NCBI GenBank assembly: GCA_050950165.1
Contig: JBMNHC010000001.1
Span: 325,724-389,723, forward strand
Source of the DNA: Candidatus Dojkabacteria bacterium
GTDB lineage: Bacteria; Patescibacteriota; Dojkabacteria; SC72
Length of the DNA stretch: 64,000 nucleotides
Reading direction: 5' to 3'
Each line of letters opens with the position of its first letter. Positions within the stretch are counted from its first letter, which is position 1. The notes beneath the pieces were generated by a model. That model saw only the letters and a program-made list of their open reading frames with translations. It made no database searches and had not been told where the DNA came from. This document shows positions 21,332 to 64,000 of the stretch, one piece after another. Made by a program: the position numbers and the translations under genes.

Positions 21332-21589
21332 ATGAAAATAACTATTTTTAAAAGAGAAAGTGACGGTGTAAAAGATATTAAGGAATTTGAAGTGAATTTT
21401 CTAGTACGATATTTTAAAGAGTTAAGTAAAAAAGACGAGGAGAAGATATATAGGGTTGTGAGGATAATAGATTCTTTAGGAAATGATGATATTGAAGAAA
21501 CTAGTGATAAAGATTATAGATTTCAAACAGATAATGATGAAGGAGAAAATCTGTTAGATGGCGTAGTTGTTAAAGGGGGTTCTGAATAA
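21332..21589 (+). CDS. Hypothetical acidic protein (85 aa)
   Basis: ORF only. Confidence 0.25.
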   Translation: MKITIFKRESDGVKDIKEFEVNFLVRYFKELSKKDEEKIYRVVRIIDSLGNDDIEETSDKDYRFQTDNDEGENLLDGVVVKGGSE

Positions 21590-32403: not shown

Positions 32404-34650
32404 ATGTCTCTATCTGCTTTACAGTATTTAAACAACTCTAATGAGAATAAATCTTTTATCGGAGTATTCCATTACACAAGACCTGTTAGAAGTAAACATG
32501 AAGAGTCTGTAGAGATCTACGGCTTACTCTCTATTAATAGCCCTATCGATATACCTGGACAAAACATTGCTAAATTTGCTTGGGACGGCCTAGTAGATGG
32601 TTTTGAATATTCGAATGAAGATTCCATGAATGGAGCTTTAAAAAGTGGATTAAAAGAGTCTACAAGGAGAGTAAAACAGTTAATTGTAAATGATAAAGAG
32701 ATCTCTATCCATGGAGTAGATATACATTTCTGTGTGTTTGTATCTACACCTGCAGGTCTCTATGTAGGCTCTATCGGAGAATCAGATATATATGTGTACA
32801 AGAAAGACAAAATTGTAGATATTTCTGAGATGTTAAAGAAGAATAACGCTAATACGGCAGGTTTGGCTTTGGAAGAGGGAGATCTACTTTTCTGTTCAAC
32901 AGAGTCTTTTCTTAAAAAGAATATGGAGAAATTAATAGGACTTAAGAGCAAAGAAGAGATATTAAAGACCTTAGATGATGTAGCTCATCTTCTCTCTGCA
33001 GGAGAAGGACTGTTAATCTTTGCTAAAGGAGAAGAGGAGATAGAGGAAGAAAATATCGTAGTAGAAGAGGTTGTAGTATCTGTTGAGGAGGAGATAGTGC
33101 CAGAAGCAGAAGTGGGTATTTTGGAACCTCCTAAGGAGAGAGATTTAAAGAGTGTTCTCTCATCTTTCTTTTCTAAAGTTTCTAAACCGTTTACTAAAAT
33201 TAAGCTCCCCAAATTGAAATTTAAAGAGTTCTTTAACAAGGTATTTACCTTTGTTAAACAGAAAACATCTCTGCTTTTTACTAAGGTAGGGGAAGGACTA
33301 AAGAAGAACAAACAGTTTAAAAAGATATTTGCAAAGATATCTCAATCTAAGCCTAATGTTGGTAAAAAAGAAGAGTTTAAAGGCTTTACAGTAGATGGAT
33401 ACAAAGTTAGAAGCAAGAAGGTAGAGAGGTTTAGAATAGCGATACTTGTTTTAGTAGGTATTGTATTACTTGTAGGTGGAGTTAAGTTTACCATAGATCA
33501 GAAAGAAGCAAGAGCAATTAGTAATGAGGCAAATAGAATCTTTACAATGGTTGGAGATCTTCTGTCTAAAGCAGAAGAGAAGAGTAGAACAGATGCTACA
33601 GGAGCAGGAACATTTCTTCTTCGTGCAGAAAATGAACTAGAGAAAGTTCCTGTGGGATTAAGTAAGAAGGATGAGGCTAAACGAGATAATTTAGAAGGTA
33701 AGGTTCTGGGTATTCAAGACACACTTTACAAAAGGGTAGGGGTAGATGAATCTAGTGGATCGATAGAGTCATTCTTAACAACAAGACTTGCCTTTGGAGA
33801 GGGTTCTAAACCAACAGATATTGTAATATATCAGGATGACAACAACAACGAATATCTACTTGTTGTTGACTCAGGTCTTAAAGGTGTTTTTAGAGTCTCC
33901 CTTTATGACAAAGAAGTAAAGAAACTTCCTGATACAGAAAAAATATTGCAAGATCCTCGTATGATATATGTTGGTAAGTCTGGTATTTTCGTATTAGATT
34001 ACAAAGTTGGTGTTGTTAGAGCAAAGTATACTTCAGATGGTTGGTTTGAAAACTTTACTAAGTTAACAGGTCTTAGTATTGATAATATTGGTGCTGGTGA
34101 TATCTCAGAGTTTGCTGTTTTAACATCAACAGACAATGTATATGTATTAGATAGATCAACTTCGTCTTTACTTAAATCTACTAATGTTGGTTCTGGATAT
34201 GGGCTTTCTCACGCATATTTGAAAAATGATGCATTTAAAGAAGCAAATGATATTTTAGCAGATTTAAGTATATATATATTAACTTCTGGTGAGAACGGTT
34301 TACACAGATATGTCTACAGCTATTTCGAACAGAAACAGGTTCCTGCTCCACTAGAAGTTTTAGGTTTAGAAGGGAATTTTAAAAACCTAGCTTACGGATA
34401 TACTAGGAAGGAACTTACTTTTGACCTCTATCTTTTTGATGATCAGGATAGGAGAGTAATGCGTTTTGAAAAGCCTATCGAGGGAGGAGGTGAGATTAGA
34501 CATCCTAATCAGATTGTACTTATTAACCAATATCTTTACAGAGGTGATAGAGAAGATGTATGGAAAGATGTTAAGGATTTGGCGGTGGATAAGGAACAGA
34601 AATATATATATATTCTGGATGCCTCAGTAGTTTGGAAGGTTAGAATGTAG
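32404..34650 (+). CDS. Large bitopic hypothetical protein (748 aa), central TM
   Basis: TM IAILVLVGIVLLVGGV at about aa 350. The N-terminal about 200 aa weakly resemble a PP2C/SpoIIE-like fold (low confidence). The C-terminal about 400 aa is a beta-rich extracytoplasmic domain. Confidence 0.4.
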   Translation: MSLSALQYLNNSNENKSFIGVFHYTRPVRSKHEESVEIYGLLSINSPIDIPGQNIAKFAWDGLVDGFEYSNEDSMNGALKSGLKESTRRVKQLIVNDKEISIHGVDIHFCVFVSTPAGLYVGSIGESDIYVYKKDKIVDISEMLKKNNANTAGLALEEGDLLFCSTESFLKKNMEKLIGLKSKEEILKTLDDVAHLLSAGEGLLIFAKGEEEIEEENIVVEEVVVSVEEEIVPEAEVGILEPPKERDLKSVLSSFFSKVSKPFTKIKLPKLKFKEFFNKVFTFVKQKTSLLFTKVGEGLKKNKQFKKIFAKISQSKPNVGKKEEFKGFTVDGYKVRSKKVERFRIAILVLVGIVLLVGGVKFTIDQKEARAISNEANRIFTMVGDLLSKAEEKSRTDATGAGTFLLRAENELEKVPVGLSKKDEAKRDNLEGKVLGIQDTLYKRVGVDESSGSIESFLTTRLAFGEGSKPTDIVIYQDDNNNEYLLVVDSGLKGVFRVSLYDKEVKKLPDTEKILQDPRMIYVGKSGIFVLDYKVGVVRAKYTSDGWFENFTKLTGLSIDNIGAGDISEFAVLTSTDNVYVLDRSTSSLLKSTNVGSGYGLSHAYLKNDAFKEANDILADLSIYILTSGENGLHRYVYSYFEQKQVPAPLEVLGLEGNFKNLAYGYTRKELTFDLYLFDDQDRRVMRFEKPIEGGGEIRHPNQIVLINQYLYRGDREDVWKDVKDLAVDKEQKYIYILDASVVWKVRM

Positions 34651-34664
34651 TATTAGTGATATAA

Positions 34665-35114
34665 TTGGGGATGAAAATATCTAACAAGAAAGCATTCTTT
34701 AATTATGAAGTCTTGGAGAGATTCGAGGCTGGCATTGTACTTAGTGGTGCAGAGGTAAAATCGATACGAGATGGTAGGTGTGATTTAAAGAACTCTTTTG
34801 TAAAAATCTTAAACGATGAAGTTTGGTTGTTGAATGCTAGTATAGCAAGATACAAATATGATGGTAGTAGTGATTATGACCCAGAGAGAACAAGAAAGCT
34901 ATTAATCACTAAAAGAGAGAAAGAATATATCCAGAGTAAGATTAAACAAGGGAATTTAACTCTTGTTCCTTTGAGTGTATACACAAAGGGTGATAGAATA
35001 AAAGTTGAATTTGCTCTTGCTAGAGGTAAAAAGGGATATGAGAAGAAGAAAGCAGAGAAAGAGAAGGATTTGGATAGAGATCTACTATACGACAAGAGGG
35101 AATATATGGTATAA
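34665..35114 (+). CDS. smpB: SsrA-binding protein SmpB
   Basis: FFNYEVLERFEAGIVLSGAEVKSIR...LLITKREK...GNLTLVPLSVYTKGDRIKVEFALARGKK is the SmpB signature. Confidence 0.9.
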   Translation: MGMKISNKKAFFNYEVLERFEAGIVLSGAEVKSIRDGRCDLKNSFVKILNDEVWLLNASIARYKYDGSSDYDPERTRKLLITKREKEYIQSKIKQGNLTLVPLSVYTKGDRIKVEFALARGKKGYEKKKAEKEKDLDRDLLYDKREYMV

Positions 35115-35125
35115 TGTTATAGGTT

Positions 35126-35419
35126 ATGGCAGAGATTAAAGATATACAACTTAGGAGAATAGAAAATGTAGAAGGAATTAAGCCTTCTGCTGAACTTACT
35201 TCTGAAATACCTAACGATAGAATCTCTGACAACAACAGTGTTGAGAATATCCCTACAATTCAGAAAACATCCCCTACTAAAGAGCCTTCAGCACAGGAAA
35301 AATCTACCTCTTCAAAGAATTCGCTACCTAATACATCTGCTTCTGTACAAGATGGTGATACATGGTCAAATATTTTGGAATACAAGAGGGAGAATAGGGG
35401 AGCAGATATTCCAAGGTAA
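35126..35419 (+). CDS. Hypothetical low-complexity (S/T/P/E-rich) protein (97 aa)
   Basis: ORF only; predicted disordered. Confidence 0.25.
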   Translation: MAEIKDIQLRRIENVEGIKPSAELTSEIPNDRISDNNSVENIPTIQKTSPTKEPSAQEKSTSSKNSLPNTSASVQDGDTWSNILEYKRENRGADIPR

Positions 35420-35481
35420 TACTCGATTACAGTTTCTAAGTATGGTATTCTTTTATAGAAACTGTTTAAGCTGTCCACTTT

Positions 35482-38001
35482 ATGAAATCATATATATTTA
35501 GTCAAATAGGGCCGGTTCCTTCCAAAAAAGATGAGGAGGTAATAGTTGGTAATTCTACTCAATACCCAAAGGATTCGTATGGAGAGAGTAGTGGCTTTAG
35601 TATAAATATCCCATGGGGATGGATTTTAGGATTGTTGGTATTTTTAGGAATATGTGTTCTTCTTGTTCTAAAAGTAAGAAAGAGACTACTTCAGAGGGAT
35701 AGAGATGATAAAGCTAAGGAGTGGGTACTCTACGAAGTAAGAGTTCCTAGGGGTAATGAGACAGAGATTGGTGTTGCAGAGAAGATGTTTGCTAATCTTG
35801 TTGGTATCGGCGGTAAAGGTAAGGGTATTGCGGAGAAATTTACAGTAAGTAACAATATTAGTTTTGAGATAATGGCAGAACCAGGTGCAATTAGGTTCTT
35901 TGTATATACTCCTCAAAAGTTAGCAGATTTGGTAGAGAAACAGATTCTCGGTTCATACCAAGATGCAGAGGTTAAGAAGGCAGATGATTATAATATTTTT
36001 AATAAGGATTCTAAAGTCGTATTTGCTAGACTAAAATTAGATGATGAACCGTACTGTCCAATTAAAGTCTTTGAAGATTTTACTGGTGACCCTCTTGCAA
36101 ATGTTTTAAGTACCCTAAGTAAGATGTCTGAAGGAGAGGGAGCTATGATTCAGATCTTAGTCTCTCCTACGGATAATAAATGGCAGAAAAATGGAGCTAG
36201 TTTTGTTAAAAAGGTAGAGAACAACAACAGTGATCCTGAGAAGAAAAAGATGAATGTTAGTCAGGAGAAGCTACAAGGTATTAGTAAGAAGGTTGCAAAG
36301 AATGGTTTTAATGTAGATATTAGAATTGTTACATCTGCATCAAATGAATCTTTAGCAAAGATGCATTTGGATAATATAATTGGAGCTTTTGATCAATTTA
36401 GTAATCCTGGGATAAATAGGTTTAAGAAAGTAGATATAAAGGGGAAAGCTAAAGAGAGAGAGTTTATGTTTGATGTAATATACAGACGAAGTATATTGGA
36501 GGGAGGTGCAACATTGAATGTAGAAGAGCTTGCTACCATATATCATTTTCCTAACAAAGATATTACTACTCCAAATATTAACTGGTTGTTGGCAAGAGAA
36601 GTGTTGGCGGATAATAGTATTAGTTCGGATATTAATTCTAAGGATACAGTATGGGTAGGTAATAACATATTTAGAGATAAAGTAAAGGCTATATGTTTTA
36701 GAAGAGATGATAGAAGAAGGCATACCTACATATTAGGTCAAACTGGTACTGGTAAGTCTTGGTTGCTTGTCAGAATGATAGTTCAGGATATATACAATGG
36801 TGATGGTGTCTGTTTTATAGATCCACACGGGCAAACGGCAGAGATGGTTTTAGAGCGTATTCCTCCTGAGAGAGTAGAGGATGTTATATATTTTAATGCT
36901 GCAGATTTTGAAAGACCTTTCGGTTTAAACATTATGGAGTACTACAATGAGCAGCATATGCATCAGATAGTTAATAGCTTCATAGGGTTATTGATTCGTC
37001 TTTTTGACCCTCATAATCAAGGTTATGTTGGGCCTATGATGCAACAGGCTGTTAGAAATGCAATGTTAACAGCTATGAGTGAGAAAGGCTCTACATTGAT
37101 AGAGGTAGTTAGAATATTGCAAGATGAGAAATGGGTTCAGGAGAAATGGTTACCACTAATTAAGGATGAGTTAGTACGCAGGTATTGGGTAGACCAGGTT
37201 GCTAAAACAGATCAAAAGACAAAATCAGAGAGTTTAGGCTACTTCATTTCCAAATTTGATAAGTTTACAACTAACTTAGCTATTAGAAATATAATAGGGC
37301 AATCTGAGTCATCATTCGATTTTAGAGAAATTATGGACCAAGGTAAAATATTAGTAGTCAATCTTGCTAAAGGTTTGCTTGGTGAAGAGAATATGTCTTT
37401 TTTGGGATTACTTTTAGTACAGAAGATATTGGCTGCAGCTCTAAGTAGAGAGAATATTCCTGAGGATCAAAGAAGAGACTTCTTCTTCTATGCTGATGAG
37501 TTTCAAAACTTTGCAACAGACGAGTTTATGTCAATACTTTCTGAAGCAAGAAAGTATAAATTAAACCTAACTCTTGCTCATCAATATATTGGTCAATTAC
37601 CAGAAAATATTAAGAATGCTGTTTTCGGTAATGTAGGATCTCTTTTTATCGCTAGGTGTGGTACTGAGGATGCAACATTTTTAGAACCACAGTTTGAGTC
37701 ATATGTAACAGCTTCTGACTTAATAAATCAGGCTATGGCTCATTACTATGTAAAGATGTTAAACAAAGGAGTGTATCAGAGTCCATTTTCGTTAAATACA
37801 CTATACGGTCCTAAGTTCCCAGAGAGTGGTTTTGATATGCCAACTAATTCAGAGGTTGCTCGAATTATTAAAGAGATGTCTAGACTTAAGTATGGTAGAG
37901 ATGTAAATATTGTAAATTTGGATATTAACAAACGATCAGAATTAGAGAAGAAAGAAGAACCTGCTACAAATAGTGATGCGTTTCCTCCTTTAGGCATTTA
38001 G
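35482..38001 (+). CDS. Type IV secretion coupling-protein-like ATPase (VirD4/TraD/TrwB family) with an N-terminal TM and extra N-domain
   Basis: RRHTYILGQTGTGKSWLL...CFIDPHGQTAE is the T4CP Walker A/DPKG-type block. FFFYADEFQNF...LTLAHQYIGQLPENIKNAVFGNVGSLFIARCG corresponds to the Walker B/TraG_C region. TM WGWILGLLVFLGICVLLVL. Confidence 0.65.
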   Translation: MKSYIFSQIGPVPSKKDEEVIVGNSTQYPKDSYGESSGFSINIPWGWILGLLVFLGICVLLVLKVRKRLLQRDRDDKAKEWVLYEVRVPRGNETEIGVAEKMFANLVGIGGKGKGIAEKFTVSNNISFEIMAEPGAIRFFVYTPQKLADLVEKQILGSYQDAEVKKADDYNIFNKDSKVVFARLKLDDEPYCPIKVFEDFTGDPLANVLSTLSKMSEGEGAMIQILVSPTDNKWQKNGASFVKKVENNNSDPEKKKMNVSQEKLQGISKKVAKNGFNVDIRIVTSASNESLAKMHLDNIIGAFDQFSNPGINRFKKVDIKGKAKEREFMFDVIYRRSILEGGATLNVEELATIYHFPNKDITTPNINWLLAREVLADNSISSDINSKDTVWVGNNIFRDKVKAICFRRDDRRRHTYILGQTGTGKSWLLVRMIVQDIYNGDGVCFIDPHGQTAEMVLERIPPERVEDVIYFNAADFERPFGLNIMEYYNEQHMHQIVNSFIGLLIRLFDPHNQGYVGPMMQQAVRNAMLTAMSEKGSTLIEVVRILQDEKWVQEKWLPLIKDELVRRYWVDQVAKTDQKTKSESLGYFISKFDKFTTNLAIRNIIGQSESSFDFREIMDQGKILVVNLAKGLLGEENMSFLGLLLVQKILAAALSRENIPEDQRRDFFFYADEFQNFATDEFMSILSEARKYKLNLTLAHQYIGQLPENIKNAVFGNVGSLFIARCGTEDATFLEPQFESYVTASDLINQAMAHYYVKMLNKGVYQSPFSLNTLYGPKFPESGFDMPTNSEVARIIKEMSRLKYGRDVNIVNLDINKRSELEKKEEPATNSDAFPPLGI

Positions 38002-48267: not shown

Positions 48268-48582
48268 CCTCCCACGAGTTTGGGAATGTTTAAAAATATG
48301 TAATGGAGACAAAGGAATCCTCTTAGAGTCTTTACTCTAATGAACCCCTGTGAGAGAAATTATTAAAGATTTGTTTAGATTAGGTTATTGCTTTAGCTCC
48401 TTAAAAGTTAAAGAGTGACAGGAAGTCAAAAAAATATTCATTTAATGACTTTCTAATAGTGTGTGTGATTTTGGTCACACAATTCATTTAAGTCGATATA
48501 CAAATCCAATCTGGCGTTGATTGGTCTGTGTTTATTAAGTAGGTAATACTACTTAGCTAAATATTGCAAAGTTAAACGTTTT

Positions 48583-50180
<1,598 letters not shown>

Positions 50181-50562: not shown

Positions 50563-54130
<3,568 letters not shown>

Positions 54131-54261
54131 ATATATTTTTACTATCTATTCGGTTTTGAGTGTACAAACACTCTTTTGCTCTTTAGAATTTAAAGTCCTG
54201 AAGATTACTGGTAGTAATATCAGTAGTCGTCAGGCAACAGATATTTATATCAGATTTTTGT

Positions 54262-54872: not shown

Positions 54873-55883
54873 ATGAAAGAATTTTTCTCTGTAGATGTAG
54901 AAGGAGGTGATCAAGTAGGAAAAGGAGATGTAGTTAAAAATCTCTCCTTGCAATTAGCTACTGAAGGCTACGATGTTTCTGTAGTATCTTTCCCCTGTTA
55001 TGCATCTCCAATTGGTAATGCAGTAAGAAGTGTTTTGAAGGAAGATATTTTTGACAACTTGGGATTAGACCCTAAAGAGTCTGTATCTTCTAAAATGGCT
55101 CTTTTTGCTTTGAATAGATTGGAGATATTAAACTACATTGTACAGGATAGAGAAGGTAAGGTATTTCTTTTTGACAGAGGACCTTTTAGTAATGCTTTAA
55201 CAATTGCATATGCTGTTAGTAAAGGATTAGATGGTGTGAATCAAGAAGAGCTTGTAGATATTGCTCTTTCTCTTGATTTTCTCTTTAGAAAAAATATGAA
55301 GGTAGATGAGTGTGTAATCAGGATATTTACTGAATCTAATAGCTGGTGTAGGAGTAGGGAAGATGGAGATTTGCATGAATCTAGAGAGGTTCAAGATATC
55401 AGTGATCTAATATATGGTATCTTCCAGAGCAAGATAGGGGGGGATTGGGTAGATATATTAAGTAAAGGTCGTGAAGGTTGGAGATCAAGAAAGGAGATAA
55501 TGGGGGATTGTTTAGAATTTATCAGAAAAAGAAACCAATTGAGCCCTGTGGGGCGTTCTAAGGAGCCAAAATATCTTTCGGTAGGTAAGGCTCTACAAAG
55601 TCTGTACAAGGGCTCTAGAATAGATTCTGTGGAGCTAAATTTGCTAGAAGAATCTTTAAAGCAAAATGAGAAGCAGGGGATGTATGAAGCATCATCTTTA
55701 ATATCTCAGGGTATAGCGAATTCTACCGAAGGGATAGAGTGGTATAATGAGGAGATTAGGGATGAGGTAAAAAGAATCTTAGATGAGCATATAGATATTG
55801 TGTCTCTTCTGGAGAAGATATATGGTGAAGAGTTTGTATATAAGTTTCTTAAATCTCTTAATACATGCGGAAAAAAGAATTAG
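54873..55883 (+). CDS. Thymidylate-kinase-like P-loop kinase-fold protein with a non-canonical P-loop (GGDQVGKGD) and a long C-terminal extension
   Basis: FSVDVEGGDQVGKGDVVKNLSLQLATEGYDVSVVSFP is collinear with the Tmk ExGxDGxGKTT...REP block. The DRG motif aligns with the Tmk DRH/Y motif. 336 aa. Confidence 0.35.
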   Translation: MKEFFSVDVEGGDQVGKGDVVKNLSLQLATEGYDVSVVSFPCYASPIGNAVRSVLKEDIFDNLGLDPKESVSSKMALFALNRLEILNYIVQDREGKVFLFDRGPFSNALTIAYAVSKGLDGVNQEELVDIALSLDFLFRKNMKVDECVIRIFTESNSWCRSREDGDLHESREVQDISDLIYGIFQSKIGGDWVDILSKGREGWRSRKEIMGDCLEFIRKRNQLSPVGRSKEPKYLSVGKALQSLYKGSRIDSVELNLLEESLKQNEKQGMYEASSLISQGIANSTEGIEWYNEEIRDEVKRILDEHIDIVSLLEKIYGEEFVYKFLKSLNTCGKKN

Positions 55884-56488
55884 CTTCTAGACTACTTCTT
55901 GAAGTCGAAAAAATATTCCCAAACGCTACTACAGAGTTAGCCAACTGGAAAACACCATTCCAGTTCTTAGTGTGTATAATTCTCTCTGCTCAAACTACAG
56001 ACAAGCAGGTCAACAAGGTTACCAAGAAACTGTTTAAAAAATATCCAACATCAAATGAACTCTCTAAAGCATCTCAAGAAGAACTGGCATATACCCTAGG
56101 GGGTATTAACTACTACAAGACTAAATCTAAACACCTAATATCGATGTCTACCATCTTAGAGAGAGAGTATAGTGGACAACCTCCTGTAAGCCTCTCTAAG
56201 CTCCTTAAACTACCAGGAGTAGGGTACAAGACAGCAAATGTATTTCTAAATGAGTACTATAAAGCTAACAAAGGTATTGCTGTAGATACTCATGTTCTTA
56301 GAGTAGCAAGAGCATATGGTCTAACAACCAATACAGACCCAACTAAAGTCTCTCATGACTTAGAAAAGCTCTATCCACAAAAGGATTGGCACAAGGTTAA
56401 TACAACCTTAGTCCTCTACGGAAGATATATTCTCAAAGCAAAGAAACCAGATATGAACAGAGTAGTTCTCAAAGAACACCTAGTCTAA
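55865..56488 (+). CDS. HhH-GPD DNA glycosylase (endonuclease III-like, no C-terminal FeS cluster)
   Basis: [12 protein letters not shown] (HhH with catalytic Lys) and [10 protein letters not shown] (Asp) are present. The Cx6Cx2Cx5C cluster is absent. Confidence 0.65.
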
Positions 56489-59400
56489 GATTTCATCTTT
56501 CTTTTAACCTTTATTTTCCTCTCTACCTTTTTCCTTTTGTATATACTGTATCCTAAAAGTATTGTTAGTAAAACAATTAAAGCAATTAACCAGTAAACAT
56601 AGCTTGGTGTAGTTATCTGCTCCAATTTTATTTTAATCTCTATCTCTTCCTCTCCATCATCAATTAGATGAATTTTCTTCTCAGCTCTATACCCATTGTA
56701 TGAAATAACCATTGTATGTAAACCAGTATCTAAATTCTCAAAATATACCTCTCCATTCTCATCAGTAATACCTGTTCTAAGATCGGAGTGCAACTCAACA
56801 GTCACACCTTTGAGAGCCCCCTGTGATTCATCATATATCTTTATTCTTAGACTCTTAGCCTGAGTAGTAGGTTTCTTATTAATTATTTCAGTTGTTTTCT
56901 CTTGTTCTTTTTCCCCAATATCAGGAATTATATATTTAGCAAATGGATTTCTTGGCTTTACAACAGGTCTTGGATCTAGTGGAGTAGGGATAATAGGTAT
57001 TGTTGGCTCTTGCCCACCTACAATATATGTAACACTGTTATCAGTAAATGTACTATCCTCATTTAGATTCCCAGCAAGGTCTTCAACAGTATTAGCAGGC
57101 AGAGAAAGTGATACTGTTTCTCCAGATATCATTCCAGTTACAATTGCAGTATATGTTGTACTGTTTACTTTTGTTAATTGTGATACAGTAGTCGTACTAC
57201 TTCCAGCTATTACTAAATCATCCTTTACAAAAGTATCTTCATTGATAGCTTCAGAGAATACAATTGTAAATTTAATTTCATCTTCATTAGTAGGATCAAC
57301 CTGATCATCAGCCTGATTTACTCTAACTGTTGGAGCGGTAGCATCGTATGTTATTGAGTCATTGGTAAAAGTACTATCCTCATTTAGATTACCAGCAAGA
57401 TCTTCAACAGTATTAGCAGGAATGATTACTGTTATAGTTTCTCCATCTGTAAGACCCGTTATCTCAACTTCATAATTTTGATCAGAATCCTCTATATTTG
57501 TAATTGAGTTTACAGAAGCTGAACTACTTATAGAACTAGATATAGCTATATCCTCACTTGTGAAAGTACCATTTTTAATCTTTTCAGAAAAAACAACTGT
57601 ATATTTAACAGAGTTAATATTAGTAGGATTAGCTTGAGTAATTGCTAGATTAACAGTGATGGTTGGAGCTATTGTATCTTTCAGTAAATTCTTAGTAAAT
57701 GTCCCTTTATTCCCAGCCTCATCTGTTTGAGATGCTTGAATAGAGATGTTTCCCTCTGTCAAAGAGGATAAATTAAGACTTTCACTCCATATTCCTTCTG
57801 CTTGACATTCTGTTTGAGATGTTTGACCTGCAATGTTGATTGTAATATCTCCATCATCTTCTGTACATGTTCCTTCTAAAGTATAGCTTGTTTTGTTAGA
57901 GCTATTAATTGGAGTATCACTTGTAATTGATACTACTGGGAGTATTCTATCAATTACAAAATCATCTTCCATTTTGGATGCGCTATTAGTAGCTTGATCA
58001 ATTGCATTAATAATTAAGTTACCGGATTTTGTAACTATCACTGTACAATTGACTTTTTTAGTTCCTGATTGGGTACACACTAAATTAGTTGGACCTCCCG
58101 TTGAACTTGAATTAATAGATACATCTTCTGCAAGAATACCATTGTTATCAGTTACTGTAATCACTATATTATCTATATTTTTATTACTAAGTTTGGTTGG
58201 AGGATTTATTGTTATAACAGGATTAGTTGCATCAACTGTTAATGCACTAGCAAAATCATATGTTTCTGTATTAAGGGCTGAATCTGTAACGATAACACTT
58301 ACAGTGTATGTTCCACTTGTTAGTTCTGGATCTATTACTCCTGCATCTAATTTCCAAGTTCCATTTCCATTGTTATCAGCACTATATGTTTTTCCTGCAA
58401 CCTTTACTTGTACTGTTGCGGTTGTATCATTTACAAGTCCTGTTAACTTAGGTGATTTTACTTTTGTAAGAAGTGTATCAAAATCAGCTACTGGAACTAT
58501 TGTATCTTTTGTAAGATTTTTTGTGTCATCTCCTATGTTTCCTACTGCGTCTGTTTGGGATACATAAACCTGAACTGTTCCATCTGGGTGGGTGGATAGA
58601 TTAAGCTCTGTACTCCATGTACCACCCGTTTGACACGCTGTGGTATGTGTTTGTTCGGCAATGATTGTCACAACACTACTATCACCCTCTGTACATGTTC
58701 CTGCTAGGGGGTAGTGTGCTTGGTTTGTTCTATTAATTGGAGCATCACTTGTTATCTGAACTACTGGTGGATCTGTATCTACTATAAAGCCTTCTACTGT
58801 TTTTGTAGCAGTATTTTTTGCTTTATCCTCTACATTTATTGTTAGGTTCCCTGACTTTACTATTGTTAATGTACAATTTACTATCTTTTCGTCTTGAGTG
58901 TCTGTTTGGCACTCAAAACCTTGCACCATTTCTTCTGAAGCTGGATCTACTGTTACTGCATTTGCAAATAGTTCAAGGTTATCTACCACCGATATGGTTA
59001 CATCTGTTATGTTTCCATTCTTTGCCATTGTTGGAGCATCTATTGTTATTTCTGGTTTTTTGTTATCAAAGAAATAGTATTGTGAGTTATATCCTATTGC
59101 ATTACTTGTTTGATCTCTCGCTGTTACTGTTACAAGGCCTGTATTTTGGATTCCTTCTATTCGACAGGTCACAGTTCCTACATATGGTTCATCGTTGATC
59201 GTGCCATGTGTATCTTCACAATGTACTATTTCTGCATCTACTGCTCCATCTCCTGAAAGTGTAATATCAACTATCTCATCTTCTGCATTTGGTGGGGTTA
59301 TGGTTACTTCTGTATTATTTATTGGTTGATTACTTATTATTGTTGGGGCGTTAAATGTTACCTCTGGTGGAAAGGAGATAGCTATTTCTGACATATTGTT

Positions 59401-62325
59401 TGTTTTATCATAGGCTTGGATATATACAGTATGTTGTGCTTCATGTGGGTCTAGGTATAATTTTTTCTCTATTATCTCTGTTGAATATTCTATATTTTCT
59501 TCTGTATATTCTTCTGGATATCCTTCTCCTCCATTATCTGCTCTATATCTTAGTATATAATTTAATACTCCTACTGGATCTACTGCCCTAAACTTTACTA
59601 ATGGGGCATCTGTACTATGTGGACTTGTTGTATCTACATTGGCTACTACAAATATAGGGCCTGATTCATCAACTACATATCCAGGTTCTGTTTTAGTTGA
59701 TACATTGCCTCCTCCATCTTCTGCTCTTATTGTTAAATCTCCTGAACCGGTTATCGTTATTGTACACTCTAAGGTTAAAGGAATTTCTGGATCATTTGAA
59801 TTGTTTACATATGGATAGTCTTGAGATTCTGTTATTGAATCTGCACTGGGGGTACATACTATATCTTTTGCTGTTGCAACACTCGTTGGATCTAATTCCA
59901 CTAAATTTATTGCAAACCCATCAGTTACTGTAAATGTTGTATCTGTTATTGGATCCCTTGATGTTTTCGTTTCGCTTGTAATTATTATTTCTGGTGGATC
60001 ATCATCTACATCTAATACTGTTATTATCAGTATTGCTTCTTCATATAATTCATCCTCATCTGTGGCCCTTACTCTAATTGAATATGTGTTATTTTCTACT
60101 CCGTCTCCTAAATCTGTTGGAATTTCATGATCTGGAGCTACTAAGAATACTAATAATCCGGTTGTTGGATTAAGTGCAAACTTCGCATTATCCTCACTCC
60201 CTTCACCTGATACTAGTGTATATATTACTTCAAGATTACTGTCTGAAAGTACTTCTCCTACTTCTGTTGTATTTTCATCTATTTCATCTTCTGATAAACG
60301 AATATTTTGTGGTGGACATTTCTTTCCAGCATCATTAATAGTCCATCTGCTTGGTTCTCCCATTAAAGTTGCTCTTGCTTCTTCTGCATAACAGTAATTT
60401 ACTCCTCTTGCATCAAAAGTTCTATTTGATAATACATTCTTTTTGCTCCATTCATTTAGCAGTTTATCGTAATTGTAATATTGCATATTGCTTCCACTAA
60501 GAAAACTTTCAAAAACTCCAACACTAGAAACATTCCAATTTGAGATATCTTGATTAAATGATTTTGCTCCAGAAAACATGCGAAGCATGTTTATAACAGC
60601 ACCTGTATTCCAATTTTCACCAAAAGGTTGATTAAACTGATAAGCATAATTAAACATAATATTCATATATTTTACTTTAACGGTGTTCCAATTTAGTGGT
60701 TTGGTACTAGCACCTGGTTCATCACCGTTATTAAAAGCACGGGCGTTTTGAAATATACCTGACATGTTTGTTACATTTCCTGTATTCCAATCACCAATAT
60801 ATTGATTAAACTTTCTGGCATTAAGAAACACGCCTTTCATATCAATTACTTCACCTGTAGTCCAATTTCCACCAAAAGGTTGATTAAATGAAGTAGCATC
60901 CTGAAACATATATGATATATATTTAACTTTGATGGTGTTCCAGTTTATTGGTTTGCTTTCATCCCCAGGCTCGGCACCATTGTTAAAAGCGGTAGCTCCT
61001 TTAAACATATATGCCATTGTTGTCACTTTCGCTGTATTCCAATTACCAATATTTTGGTTAAAAGCAGTAGCTCCACCAAACATGTTATACGTACTTTCAA
61101 CATTTCCTGTATTCCAGTTACTAATATCTTGGTTAAAATACTTAGTTCCTCTAAACATATCTGCCATTGCTGTCACATTCGCTGTTTTCCAATTAGGGCC
61201 AAACGGTTGATTAAAGTCTCTTGCTGCAAACATTCCATTCATAGTCTGAACTTTACTAGTATTCCAGTTTATAGGTTTAGTACTAGCACCTGGTTCATCA
61301 CCATTATTAAAAACAAGAGCTCCATTAAACATGTTTGCCATATAAACAACCGCGCCTGTATTCCATTCACCAATATATTGATTAAATGAAGTAGCATTAG
61401 AAAACATAGAAATCGTACGTTGAACTTTACCAGTATTCCAATCTAGTGGTTTAGTACTAGCGCCTGGTTCATCACCATTATTAAAAGCAGTAGCTCCTGC
61501 AAACATATTATCCATACTAGTAACCTCACCAGTTTTCCATTCACTAATATCTTGATTAAACGAAGTGGCTTGATAAAACATACCATTCATATTCTTGACA
61601 CTTTTTGTATCCCAACCACCAATATCTTGGTTAAATGAAGTGGCTTGATCGAACATACTCCCCATATTAGTAACATTTCCTGTATTCCAGTTACTGATGT
61701 CTTGGTTAAAAGAAGAAGCTCTAAAAAATGTACTATTCATATTCAGAACATTACTAGTATCCCAAGTATTCATTGACTCATGACCAGTAAAGTTTGTAGC
61801 ACTATGAAAAGTTTGATACATACTAGTTACTGCTGATAGATCAGGTTTATCACTAGCTGTTATCTGCATGTTTTTCATACCTATAAAAGCTGATGCAAAG
61901 CTTGACCATGGAATATGTCCCCACTGTTTTATCTCTTGTAGCTTAGCTCTCTCATCTACAGCTAAATCAGGAGCATAGAAGTGGAGTGGAGCTGTTGATC
62001 TAACACAAATATCATAGGTACCAGTCTCACCATAATCATAACTAACTTTATTACTAGAAACTGGTAGGAAATCGTCATTACAATGCCAAGAGACTTCGTA
62101 TTCATCCGTGGCGTTTTTTAGGAAGTTTAGAGTAACTTTAGTTGGCTCAGTAGCTCCCTCTACATTAGTTGTCCAACTAGTAACAAACAGATCAGAAGAG
62201 TAGGCATGGGTTGGAAAGTTCCTGTTCTTAATTAAAAAGGTTGTAAAACCAATAACTAACAAGAGAGTACTTAGTAAAAAGAGAATTTTCTTCAAATGTG
62301 AGTTTTTGGCAGTTTTTACAATCAT
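56485..62325 (-). CDS. Giant cell-surface protein (1,946 aa): N-terminal anchor/signal, about 14 DUF285 (BspA/Mycoplasma-type LRR) repeats, multiple Ig/cadherin-like domains, a CarboxypepD_reg-like domain, and a C-terminal TM with basic tail
   Basis: Repeated [18 protein letters not shown] units (aa about 200-600). Repeated about 100-aa beta-domains. ...[42 protein letters not shown]-terminus [36 protein letters not shown]. Confidence 0.75.
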
Positions 62326-62361
62326 AACCTCATATTTTTGTATAATAATATGTTTGTTTTA

Positions 62362-64000
62362 CTATTTTTCTTCATTATTTCTCTTTTCTTTGTGTACACG
62401 ATATCCTAAATATATTGAAAGTATTATTAGGAATATAACTAATACAATTAGCCAATAGACATAGTTAGGTATTATCACTTTTTCTAGCTTGATATTTATC
62501 TCCATTTCTTCCTCTCCATCGCTGACTAGATTAATTTTCTTTTCAGCCCTATATTCATTATATGAAATAATCATTGTATGTAAACCTGTTTCTAGATTCT
62601 CAAAGTATACTTCTCCATTCTCATCAGTAACTCCTGTTCTAACATCAGAATGTATTTCAACAGTAACACCTTTGATAGGTTCTCCTGTATCATTGTATAC
62701 CTTTATCTTTAGACTCTTAGATTGAGTAGGGGTAGTAGGTTTTTTAGTTGTTTCTGAGGTTTTTTCTTCATTAGAAGGTGTGGTCTCTTCTAGTTGTTCA
62801 ACTACAGGAGCTATATATTTAGTAATTGGGCTTTTTGGTTTTACAACAGGTTTTGGATCTAGAGGAGTAGGGATAACAGGGATTGTTGGTTCTTCCTCAG
62901 GCTCATCGGGTTTCTCAGGCTCATCAGGTTGTTCTGGTTCTTCCTCATCTACAGTGTATGTAACACTGTTATCAGTATATGTTGATGCAGCATTCTTGTT
63001 TCCAGCCATATCCTCAACACTATCAGCAGGTAGAGAGAGTGAAACAGTTTCTCCAGATAACATGCCAGTTACAATAGCGGTATATGTTGTACTATCAATC
63101 TTAATTAAGTTGGACACTGTAGCAGTAGTACTTCCTTCTATTACTAAATCATCCTTTGTAAATGTATCTTCATTAATTGCCTCAGAGAATACAATTGTGA
63201 ACTTAATTTCATTTACATTAGTAGGATCAGCTTGATCATCGGCTTGGTTTACTGTAACTGTTGGTTGAGTAATATCATATGTAACAGAGTAATCATCACC
63301 AGTAGATTCAATATTTCCATTACCAGCTAGGTCTGTTACTGCATCTGCAGGAATAGTTGCTGTTATAGTATCTCCATCTGTTAGGTTATCTATTTCAACT
63401 TCATATTCTGTTCCTGTATCCCCAATCTCTGTAATACTTTTTACTTTAGCAGTAGTACTTCCAGATATTAATATGTCTTCATTAGTAAATGTAGTTTTAT
63501 CAATCTTTTCAGAGAAAATTACAGTATATTTAACAGAATTAATATTGGTAGGATCAACCTGAGTAGTGGATTGGTTAATAGTTACAGTAGGTGAAGTAGT
63601 ATCGTATGTTCTTTCATTGTCTAAAGAAGTACTAACATTATTAAGATTGCCTGCTAGATCAGAAACTCTTCCTGCAGGTAGGATAACTTTGTATGTAGCA
63701 TCCTGTGTTGGTTTGAATATTACGATAGCATTACTGTTATCTATAATAGATACCTGTGCATCAGTGTAAGTTCCTCCGGTGATAGAGAAGTCCTCTATAC
63801 TTAAAGTATCAGTATCTATTTCTTTTGAGAAAGTAACATTAAATCTAAAATCAGTATCTTCAGGGTTATTTAGTAGGTTAGTAGGGTCTAAATAGTTAGC
63901 ATTTGGTTTTCTCTCTTCTATAGTTACATTTGGTTTTTCACTGTCATAAGTAACAGCACTTGATTCTACTTCCGCAGTATTCCAGTTGCCAAGAACATCT
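62362..64000 (-). CDS. Second giant surface protein paralog (C-terminal about 545 aa; gene continues beyond the window end)
   Basis: Its C-terminal 250 aa are collinear with the end of the 56485-62325 product, plus a PEQPDEPEKPDEPEEEP linker. The minus-strand frame stays open from 63117 to at least 63360 (checked codon by codon), and the Ig-like repeats match the upstream paralog. Confidence 0.6.
   Translation of the reverse strand, partial: DVLGNWNTAEVESSAVTYDSEKPNVTIEERKPNANYLDPTNLLNNPEDTDFRFNVTFSKEIDTDTLSIEDFSITGGTYTDAQVSIIDNSNAIVIFKPTQDATYKVILPAGRVSDLAGNLNNVSTSLDNERTYDTTSPTVTINQSTTQVDPTNINSVKYTVIFSEKIDKTTFTNEDILISGSTTAKVKSITEIGDTGTEYEVEIDNLTDGDTITATIPADAVTDLAGNGNIESTGDDYSVTYDITQPTVTVNQADDQADPTNVNEIKFTIVFSEAINEDTFTKDDLVIEGSTTATVSNLIKIDSTTYTAIVTGMLSGETVSLSLPADSVEDMAGNKNAASTYTDNSVTYTVDEEEPEQPDEPEKPDEPEEEPTIPVIPTPLDPKPVVKPKSPITKYIAPVVEQLEETTPSNEEKTSETTKKPTTPTQSKSLKIKVYNDTGEPIKGVTVEIHSDVRTGVTDENGEVYFENLETGLHTMIISYNEYRAEKKINLVSDGEEEMEINIKLEKVIIPNYVYWLIVLVIFLIILSIYLGYRVHKEKRNNEEK

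Follow-up and report, generated by a model that had tools for sequence, protein, structure and literature searches.

The 64,000-nt stretch of a Candidatus Dojkabacteria genome analysed here (contig JBMNHC010000001.1, nt 325724 – 389723; hereafter the window) ends in two adjacent and similar genes for putative giant surface proteins. This locus raises the question of whether the genes are truly two or a single one copied during assembly and, if two, what their products are built to do and by what route they vary. The best explanation, and one we regard as likely, is that they are co-oriented, probably co-transcribed paralogs for giant, membrane-anchored surface proteins with leucine-rich repeat (LRR) heads, diversified by recombination. 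Gene A (nt 56485 – 62325, minus strand, stop codon at nt 56485 – 56487) is complete and forms one open reading frame (ORF) of 1,946 codons. Gene B is represented by its 3' end (1.6 kb, nt 62362 – 63999, minus strand), which codes for the last 545 residues of the paralog; the frame is open to a TAG codon (nt 62362 – 62364), and an in-frame TAA follows. The first-pass annotation of the window had called gene B the downstream paralog, which holds in forward coordinates only, as on the coding strand it is placed 5' (upstream) of gene A.

The tandem pair and its counterparts in relatives

The 545 residues of gene B are 100% identical to the C-terminus of P0007, a protein of 2,109 residues carried on a 724,554-bp contig of a Candidatus Dojkabacteria metagenome-assembled genome. 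Since P0007 ends with exactly the residues found in the window, it represents the full-length upstream paralog. The gene A and gene B products are collinear and share 61% identity over the last 430 residues (BLASTP, E 2e-155), and together with the recurrent arrays described below this confirms the initial description of two tandem paralogs with collinear C-terminal halves. P0007, too, carries a DUF285 head, and it aligns collinearly with the gene A product along its whole length (51% identity). Pfam matches in the available part of gene B are to Big_12, Big_5 and CarboxypepD_reg. The closest homologs, which carry the name 'BspA family leucine-rich repeat surface protein', all belong to Candidatus Dojkabacteria. 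Judging from the spacer between genes A and B, which is 36 nt long (nt 62326 – 62361, minus strand) and without a terminator-like hairpin, the two are probably co-transcribed.

Both genes are long and internally repetitive and have collinear C-termini in common, features that would also be expected if an assembler had duplicated or mis-joined one repeat-rich gene. This is nevertheless extremely improbable, as the copies are only 61% identical in amino acid sequence and ~76–83% identical in their best DNA stretches. The longest exact word common to both genes is 21 nt, far below the k-mer length that would cause collapse or duplication by an assembler, and the longest exact direct repeat in nt 56485 – 64000 is 24 nt. 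Gene B has, moreover, been deposited independently in the form of P0007, and arrays of two or three such genes recur in independently assembled relatives (ENA, JGI and NCBI; loci designated L001, L002 and so on). In L001, L002/L009, L006 and L007 these arrays adjoin the HhH-GPD gene that also borders the pair in the window. The tandem pair is two genuine genes and not an assembly artefact. Pseudogene or artefact identities were considered for both genes and dismissed on the evidence.

Next to this HhH-GPD gene, between one and three co-oriented genes ending in a CarboxypepD_reg domain and a transmembrane (TM) helix are found in L001, L002/L009, L006, L007 and L010. There are three in L002/L009 and in L007, at least two in L006 and L001, and one in L010 (749-kb contig). 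A three-gene array of the same kind is present in L003/L004, but there it is followed by helix-turn-helix and Gp49-family genes; L005 shows two of those genes. The relatives obtained from a single scan of genome contigs are at 81% identity or below.

Head, stalk and anchor of the encoded proteins

From N- to C-terminus, the gene A product comprises a Sec-type signal, a PKD-like domain, a DUF285 solenoid of ~480 residues, ~11 cadherin/immunoglobulin (Ig)-like domains, a Pro-rich spacer, a CarboxypepD_reg domain, a TM helix and a basic tail. Domain borders were set from recurring, conserved D-x-x-x-P-x-(V/I) junctions between the domains, and all coordinates of protein features given below refer to the minus strand. 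DUF285 heads, Ig-like arrays and C-terminal TM/basic-tail anchors had been proposed from the outset, and Pfam, hydropathy and AlphaFold2 (AF2) models agree with this. By hydropathy the protein has just two hydrophobic segments (aa 13–33 and aa 1906–1930), and its membrane-targeting sequences are the N-terminal hydrophobic helix and the C-terminal TM helix, both also seen in AF2. Residues 1–41 (nt 62203 – 62325) consist of a basic n-region, the hydrophobic helix at aa 13–33 and a candidate signal-peptidase site, THA/YS; in the AF2 model a helix spans residues 9–33 and is followed by a drop in predicted local distance difference test (pLDDT) values at 33–39. This helix is possibly a cleaved signal peptide, or else an N-terminal signal anchor. 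The signal region has no Cys, and a lipoprotein identity was dismissed. The adjoining N-domain (aa 42–131, nt 61933 – 62202) is a small beta-sandwich with a weak resemblance to PKD domains (PKD/PKD_4 in Pfam, E 0.02, sub-threshold), with AF2 strands of pLDDT >90, columns that are invariant across homologs and a conserved Cys82/Cys107 pair.

The head itself (aa 132–615, nt 60481 – 61932) is an array of ~16–18 DUF285/PARCEL repeat units. DUF285 (PF03382) matches in seven stretches (501.5 bits, cutoff 25, E 3.6e-153) and the NCBIfam model TIGR02167 'PARCEL' scores 101.9 bits (cutoff 30), in line with the earlier comparison of this repeat to those of Mycoplasma and Listeria surface proteins. Units are 25 residues (75 nt) long, and every second or third is stretched to 33 by an insert; the DNA periods of 75, 174 and 252 nt arise because 25-residue units alternate with 33-residue units. 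Sixteen units anchored by W-x-T/V were counted between aa 188 and 597, in addition to degenerate N-terminal ones, which replaces an earlier estimate of about 14.

An AF2 model of aa 1–690, built with 22 homologs as input, reached a pLDDT of 90.2 and a predicted template modelling score of 0.80, and in this model the repeat region is predicted to form an LRR solenoid. The solenoid is closed by a helical/beta C-terminal cap (aa 616–670, nt 60316 – 60480) with helices at residues 616–626 and 648–655, strands at 636–639 and 662–665, and invariant Y619, L622, L623, C645 and C670, of which the last two form the conserved Cys645/Cys670 pair. Foldseek matches of the head model belong to the same structural class, although with low TM-scores because the curvature of the solenoid differs. 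The 'BspA family' label derives from the NCBI naming of homologs; by sequence the head is DUF285/PARCEL and not LRR_5 (PF13306), the BspA-type repeat model, which was absent from the Pfam matches of gene A at E ≤0.01. A BspA-like LRR head on an Ig-like stalk is thus a reading supported at the level of predicted structure. Dyad symmetry, which has been described for the DNA that codes for PARCEL, was not evident in the repeats of gene A, where nt 60450 – 61850 contained one 17-nt palindrome, 76% complementary; the palindrome test applied here differs from the statistical MEME approach of the original study, which states that the symmetry may have decayed (PMC2996958).

Opposite the two genes, the plus strand has four antisense ORFs of 93–172 residues (nt 58049 – 58567, 58818 – 59198, 60929 – 61389 and 62780 – 63235), two of which overlap the DUF285 tract. 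Antisense ORFs over repeat-coding regions have also been mentioned for PARCEL (PMC2996958), and those seen here are probably non-coding shadows.

The stalk begins with a cadherin-like domain (aa 671–773, nt 60007 – 60315) that ends in LDVDDDPP. Its assignment is weak, as the Pfam Cadherin match (E 8e-4, 20.2 bits) lies below the gathering cutoff of 28.8, and a PDB sequence search with gene A gave weak matches only, to protocadherin chains (E 0.004). Eight beta-sandwich, Ig-like domains of 91–114 residues each follow (aa 774–1550, nt 57676 – 60006), several with a Cys pair. Matches to hidden Markov models (HMMs) in this part are to Big_13 (43 bits, aa 1275–1365) and Big_3_3, and gene A also matches Ca_tandemer (NF033510) in three stretches (66.3 bits, cutoff 50), the best at aa 1458–1540. 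The last two Ig domains (aa 1551–1769, nt 57019 – 57675) are Big_12/Big_5-like and, by BLASTP collinearity, common to the paralog. Of the Ig/cadherin-like domains recorded in the first-pass annotation, the Ig-like part therefore stands and the cadherin call is weak. In an AF2 model of the C-terminal 419 residues, a disordered linker separates two Ig domains (pLDDT 85–96) from a sandwich of seven strands, after which the model ends in a long helix; Foldseek matches of this model include FdeC, invasin, InvD, UafA, BcpA and Gram-positive pilins, as well as the S-layer protein SbsC. The linker (aa 1770–1823, nt 56857 – 57018, pLDDT 25–49) is Pro/Lys-rich and then Glu/Thr/Lys-rich, and its motif TPLDPKPVVKPKNPF is kept among homologs. 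As had been pointed out, the partial copy differs here: an acidic Pro/Glu linker, DEEEPEQPDEPEKPDEPEEEP (nt 62887 – 62949), extra relative to gene A, is present in gene B only and stems in part from an in-frame 18-nt repeat of ~2.2 copies (nt 62888 – 62930).

The membrane-proximal domain (aa 1824–1908, nt 56602 – 56856) is a prealbumin-like CarboxypepD_reg domain, with seven strands in AF2. Its family models (PF13620/PF13715) score 26–30 bits in gene A, which is sub-threshold, and 37.3 bits (cutoff 32.3) in gene B, where the domain occupies nt 62479 – 62712. The protein ends (aa 1909–1946, nt 56488 – 56601) with a P-S-Y-V-Y-W interface motif, a TM helix evident from hydropathy and AF2, and a basic tail in which 11 of 18 residues are K or R; gene B has the equivalent P-N-Y-V-Y-W motif, TM helix and basic tail at nt 62365 – 62463. 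This layout of motif, helix and tail has a three-part resemblance to a sorting signal. There is no LPXTG before the TM helix, the residues there being TTPSYVYW or IIPNYVYW, and the TIGR01167 match (13.6 bits, cutoff 15.9) covers model positions 11–33 only, i.e. the TM part; an LPXTG/sortase-anchored identity was ruled out on both counts. Among the curated C-terminal sorting models in NCBIfam (PEP-CTERM, PGF-CTERM, GlyGly-CTERM, Heimdall-CTERM and others) none passed its cutoff, the best score being that of Heimdall-CTERM (12.9 bits, cutoff 24).

The same anchor is widespread. Searched exhaustively with HMMER, the last 177 residues returned 812 cluster representatives at E ≤1e-3, and among the best 148 of these, 107 have CarboxypepD_reg directly before a C-terminal TM helix. 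Of the 107, 92% have at least three K/R in the 10 residues after the helix and 85 have a Pro in the 12 residues before it. The interface motif is P-x-Y-V-Y-W in Dojkabacteria and S-P...W/Y in the wider set. With the 176-aa anchor module as query, a word-indexed search for homologs found three truncated gene calls only. Nine members of the wider family were sampled for their heads, which are unrelated and include SdrD_B, DUF2341, Laminin_G_3, GH16, beta-helix, FG-GAP and LysM/Flg_new. As the CarboxypepD_reg+TM module is fused to so many unrelated heads, it is a general membrane-proximal display anchor, most simply read as one with a type I membrane topology. A bolder proposal would take the whole C-terminal cassette (Pro-rich spacer, CarboxypepD_reg, interface motif, TM helix and K/R tail) as more than a passive anchor, namely as an unrecognised, lineage-wide display or sorting signal of monoderm cells of the Candidate Phyla Radiation (CPR), with its own processing or anchoring pathway comparable to LPXTG/sortase. 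The locus would then determine the range of hosts or partners through cassettes exchanged by recombination. The counts among the 148 representatives, the variety of heads and the absence of a match to a curated sorting model speak for this proposal, but the data do not call for a dedicated pathway, and we consider it unlikely. A look-up of cluster members in the wider anchor family gave almost no taxonomy from which CPR-specificity could be assigned.

Recombination as the route of variation

How the locus changes can be seen in strain L001, whose nucleotide identity to the window is 96.7% along a 7.7-kb stretch that reaches from the housekeeping genes across gene A. This identity stops at nt 62328. 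The upstream paralog of L001 is another member of the family, 56% identical to gene B and 86% identical to P0015. By comparison, the gene A ortholog of this strain (P0001) has the same length as gene A and 95% amino acid identity, and the ratio of nonsynonymous to synonymous substitution rates between the two is 0.24 overall (0.07–0.31 per region), so point substitutions in gene A are under purifying selection.

Exchange of segments is seen in P0003, which holds the position of gene A in L002, a genome in which the HhH-GPD protein beside the locus shares 69% identity, and the kinase-like protein 33%, with its counterpart in the window. Across ~800 head residues P0003 is 95–100% identical to P0007, and over aa 1272–1421 of gene A it is 94–98% identical in amino acids and 80–92% at third codon positions; it is also highly similar at aa 51–100. 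Elsewhere, third-codon identity to gene A is ~40–50%. On this pattern P0003 is a chimera of both window genes, formed by recent exchange between divergent lineages. The C-terminal parts vary as well. In P0002, 85% of the length aligns with gene A at 87% identity, but the C-terminus is a different one and lacks the TM anchor, and P0059 likewise has a non-TM region in place of CarboxypepD_reg+TM, which in this protein is PF01471 (precomputed Pfam). In P0010, P0035, P0061 and P0063, fn3/LysM modules are inserted before the anchor. The different, non-TM C-terminus of P0002 indicates that anchors are also swapped, and anchor modules are interchangeable within the family.

These comparisons show that the locus owes its diversification to recombination, homologous or illegitimate, with segmental exchange and cassette replacement between paralogs, strains and lineages, that whole paralogs are replaced between near-identical strains, and that copy number at the locus ranges from one to three. 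Ongoing diversification, which the first-pass annotation had deduced from the tandem duplication and its diverging linker, is thus upheld, although recombination and cassette replacement take the place of linker divergence as the main route. Neither protein had a C-type-lectin family among its Pfam matches, and a diversity-generating retroelement, reverse transcriptase or template repeat was not searched for.

A different route would be phase variation, in which the genes form a contingency locus switched by slipped-strand mispairing in their internal repeats or by inversion of a promoter. Surface protein families with tandem repeats, including the PARCEL lipoproteins of Mycoplasma, are often variable (PMC2996958), and the 2.2 copies of the in-frame 18-nt repeat that code for the acidic linker of gene B would offer a substrate. 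The internal DNA repeats noted earlier are real but diverged, the three periods in gene A being 60–81% identical, with no exact repeat longer than 24 nt, and all repeat periods in the adhesin genes are multiples of 3. Neither gene A nor the gene B part contains an A/T homopolymer of at least 8 nt, a G/C homopolymer of at least 6 nt or a simple sequence repeat, the sole repeat of the latter kind in nt 56000 – 64000 being (AG)5 at nt 56158, inside the neighbouring HhH-GPD gene, and inverted repeats of at least 25 nt are absent from nt 56485 – 64000. The L001 ortholog of gene A is intact and of identical length, without frameshift. Phase variation is therefore very unlikely, and the idea that the region is a hotspot of assembly errors and phase variation was not borne out. 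The 18-nt repeat of the gene B linker is the only one that could plausibly change length, and would then do so in frame.

Predicted function, related systems and neighbouring genes

In the favoured explanation, that of recombination-diversified, membrane-anchored LRR proteins, the product of gene A would leave the cell through Sec and stay fixed in the cytoplasmic membrane through its C-terminal helix, with the basic tail in the cytoplasm according to the positive-inside rule. The spacer and Ig rod would carry the LRR head tens of nanometres past the envelope, where the variable surface of the solenoid could bind a ligand, for which a structure on the surface of a host or partner cell, or else a polymer, is the most likely identity. 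An adhesin function of genes A and B is plausible by analogy. All Patescibacteria in cultivation are described as episymbionts (PMC12206443), and attachment to a partner cell is therefore the most economical hypothesis. The first-pass annotation had viewed the proteins as attachment factors of an epibiotic bacterium; membership in the CPR makes this context reasonable, and the adhesin role itself is a plausible deduction.

A number of points weigh against this explanation. Binding, ligand and surface exposure are all deduced rather than observed, and a role in host attachment is extrapolated from other Patescibacteria, there being no cultured representative of Dojkabacteria here. Of the eight Ig-like domains only some have individual HMM support, and several of the middle ones are sub-threshold. 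If the N-terminal helix were not cleaved off, the protein would be anchored at either end. Finally, the window contains neither the promoter of gene B nor the 5' two-thirds of that gene, and an upstream regulatory switch is possible there.

The proteins might instead be structural components of the envelope, such as an S-layer-like or wall-spanning scaffold, or binders of a nutrient or polymer, and not cell-to-cell adhesins. The anchor module is not adhesin-specific, as it is also fused to GH16, Laminin_G_3, beta-helix, FG-GAP, LysM and SdrD_B heads, and the fold matches of the stalk include SbsC. In structure the stalk is, however, closest to adhesins, invasins and pilins; LRR solenoid heads are classically ligand-binding, and rapid exchange of head cassettes is more typical of surfaces that interact with changing targets than of scaffolds. 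A scaffold or polymer-binding role is on balance unlikely, and it overlaps the favoured explanation in all but the ligand.

Comparison with known systems places the genes among established families. Tannerella BspA has LRR_5 repeats, Big_2 domains and a type IX secretion system C-terminal domain in a diderm cell, whereas the anchor of gene A is a TM helix. The BspA-type LRR protein BACOVA_04585 of Bacteroides ovatus (PDB 4fs7) is a structural relative with 9% sequence identity to gene A. The PARCEL/DUF285 element has been described as a 25-residue amphipathic repeat of membrane-targeted proteins, spread by horizontal gene transfer and intragenomic shuffling (Roske et al. 2010, PMC2996958). Proteins with this element, such as LppQ of Mycoplasma mycoides and 'lipo_26' of Listeria, share with gene A the 25-residue/75-nt tandem repeat, membrane targeting, a punctate distribution and horizontal and intragenomic shuffling; gene A differs in lacking a lipobox, in its C-terminal TM anchor and ~1,100-aa Ig-like stalk, and in being far larger. 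The only functional evidence found for an architecture of DUF285 and Ig-like domains is that for AJ89_07570 of Lactococcus lactis IBB477 (DUF285 together with MucBP and four copies of Big_3), an adhesion factor with experimental support, adhesion being lower when it is deleted (PMC5071367). It resembles gene A in combining a DUF285 head with bacterial Ig-like domains on a surface protein, but is described as cell-wall associated and is much shorter, with a stalk from other Big families. Intimin, invasin and FdeC, LPXTG pilins, microbial surface components recognizing adhesive matrix molecules (MSCRAMMs) and Ca_tandemer adhesins likewise present a distal binding module on a rod of tandem beta-sandwiches; unlike these giant Ig-repeat adhesins, gene A has no LPXTG, and its head is N-terminal and its anchor C-terminal. 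No outer-membrane beta-barrel or RTX family was among the Pfam/NCBIfam matches of gene A, and a type I secretion signal was not searched for. A type I secretion/RTX adhesin identity, to which the Ca_tandemer match could have pointed, was ruled out, the C-terminus being CarboxypepD_reg, TM helix and basic tail, with no RTX family.

Repeat family, fold, stalk and naming are thus all established, and this is not a new kind of system; what is added is a full-length second paralog, a confident model of the LRR head, the general CarboxypepD_reg+TM anchor and direct evidence of cassette exchange. To our knowledge, the molecular mechanisms of host recognition and binding in CPR/Patescibacteria are largely unknown. 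The locus is a plausible candidate for such recognition, with large, surface-displayed LRR proteins in one to three copies per genome. Heads and stalks are exchanged even between lineages with housekeeping genes 33–69% identical, and this exchange across strains and lineages makes the locus a reasonable marker of strain-level host or partner specificity in Dojkabacteria. The well-predicted head domain is a practical target for binding assays.

Gene A and the HhH-GPD gene (plus strand, ending at nt 56488) are convergent and overlap by 4 nt, without a terminator-like hairpin between them. The adjacent plus-strand gene (nt 54873 – 55883, 336 aa) has an N-terminal thymidylate-kinase-like region (E 6e-7) and is only 33% identical in amino acid sequence to its syntenic L002 counterpart, the figure for the adjacent HhH-GPD protein being 69%; it is unusually fast-evolving or has been replaced. 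A few kb from their adhesin clusters, L002 and L006 have a protein of 437–476 aa with a weak Cas_csx3 match (nt 21450 – 22763 in L002, nt 9903 – 11330 in L006), together with a DEAD/Helicase_C gene; in the window, the interval from the adhesin genes to the rRNA operon showed no counterpart. G+C content is 42–46% within this operon and 32–38% outside it. The 16S gene (nt 48582 – 50180) is 1,599 nt long relative to a 1,533-nt model, and the 23S match (nt 50563 – 54135, plus strand) covers 3,573 nt relative to 2,925 nt, i.e. ~650 nt extra inside the gene, in which no Rfam intron family was found at E ≤0.1 and no plus-strand ORF of at least 80 aa. Insertion sequences in rRNA genes are a known CPR trait (PMC11270868). 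Further away (nt 32404 – 38001, plus strand), an 839-aa protein has weak T4SS-DNA_transf/TrwB_AAD_bind matches (coupling-protein/HerA-type ATPase) and follows a 748-aa ORF for which Pfam gave no match; this may be part of the Patescibacteria type IV secretion or conjugation-like system (PMC12102498).

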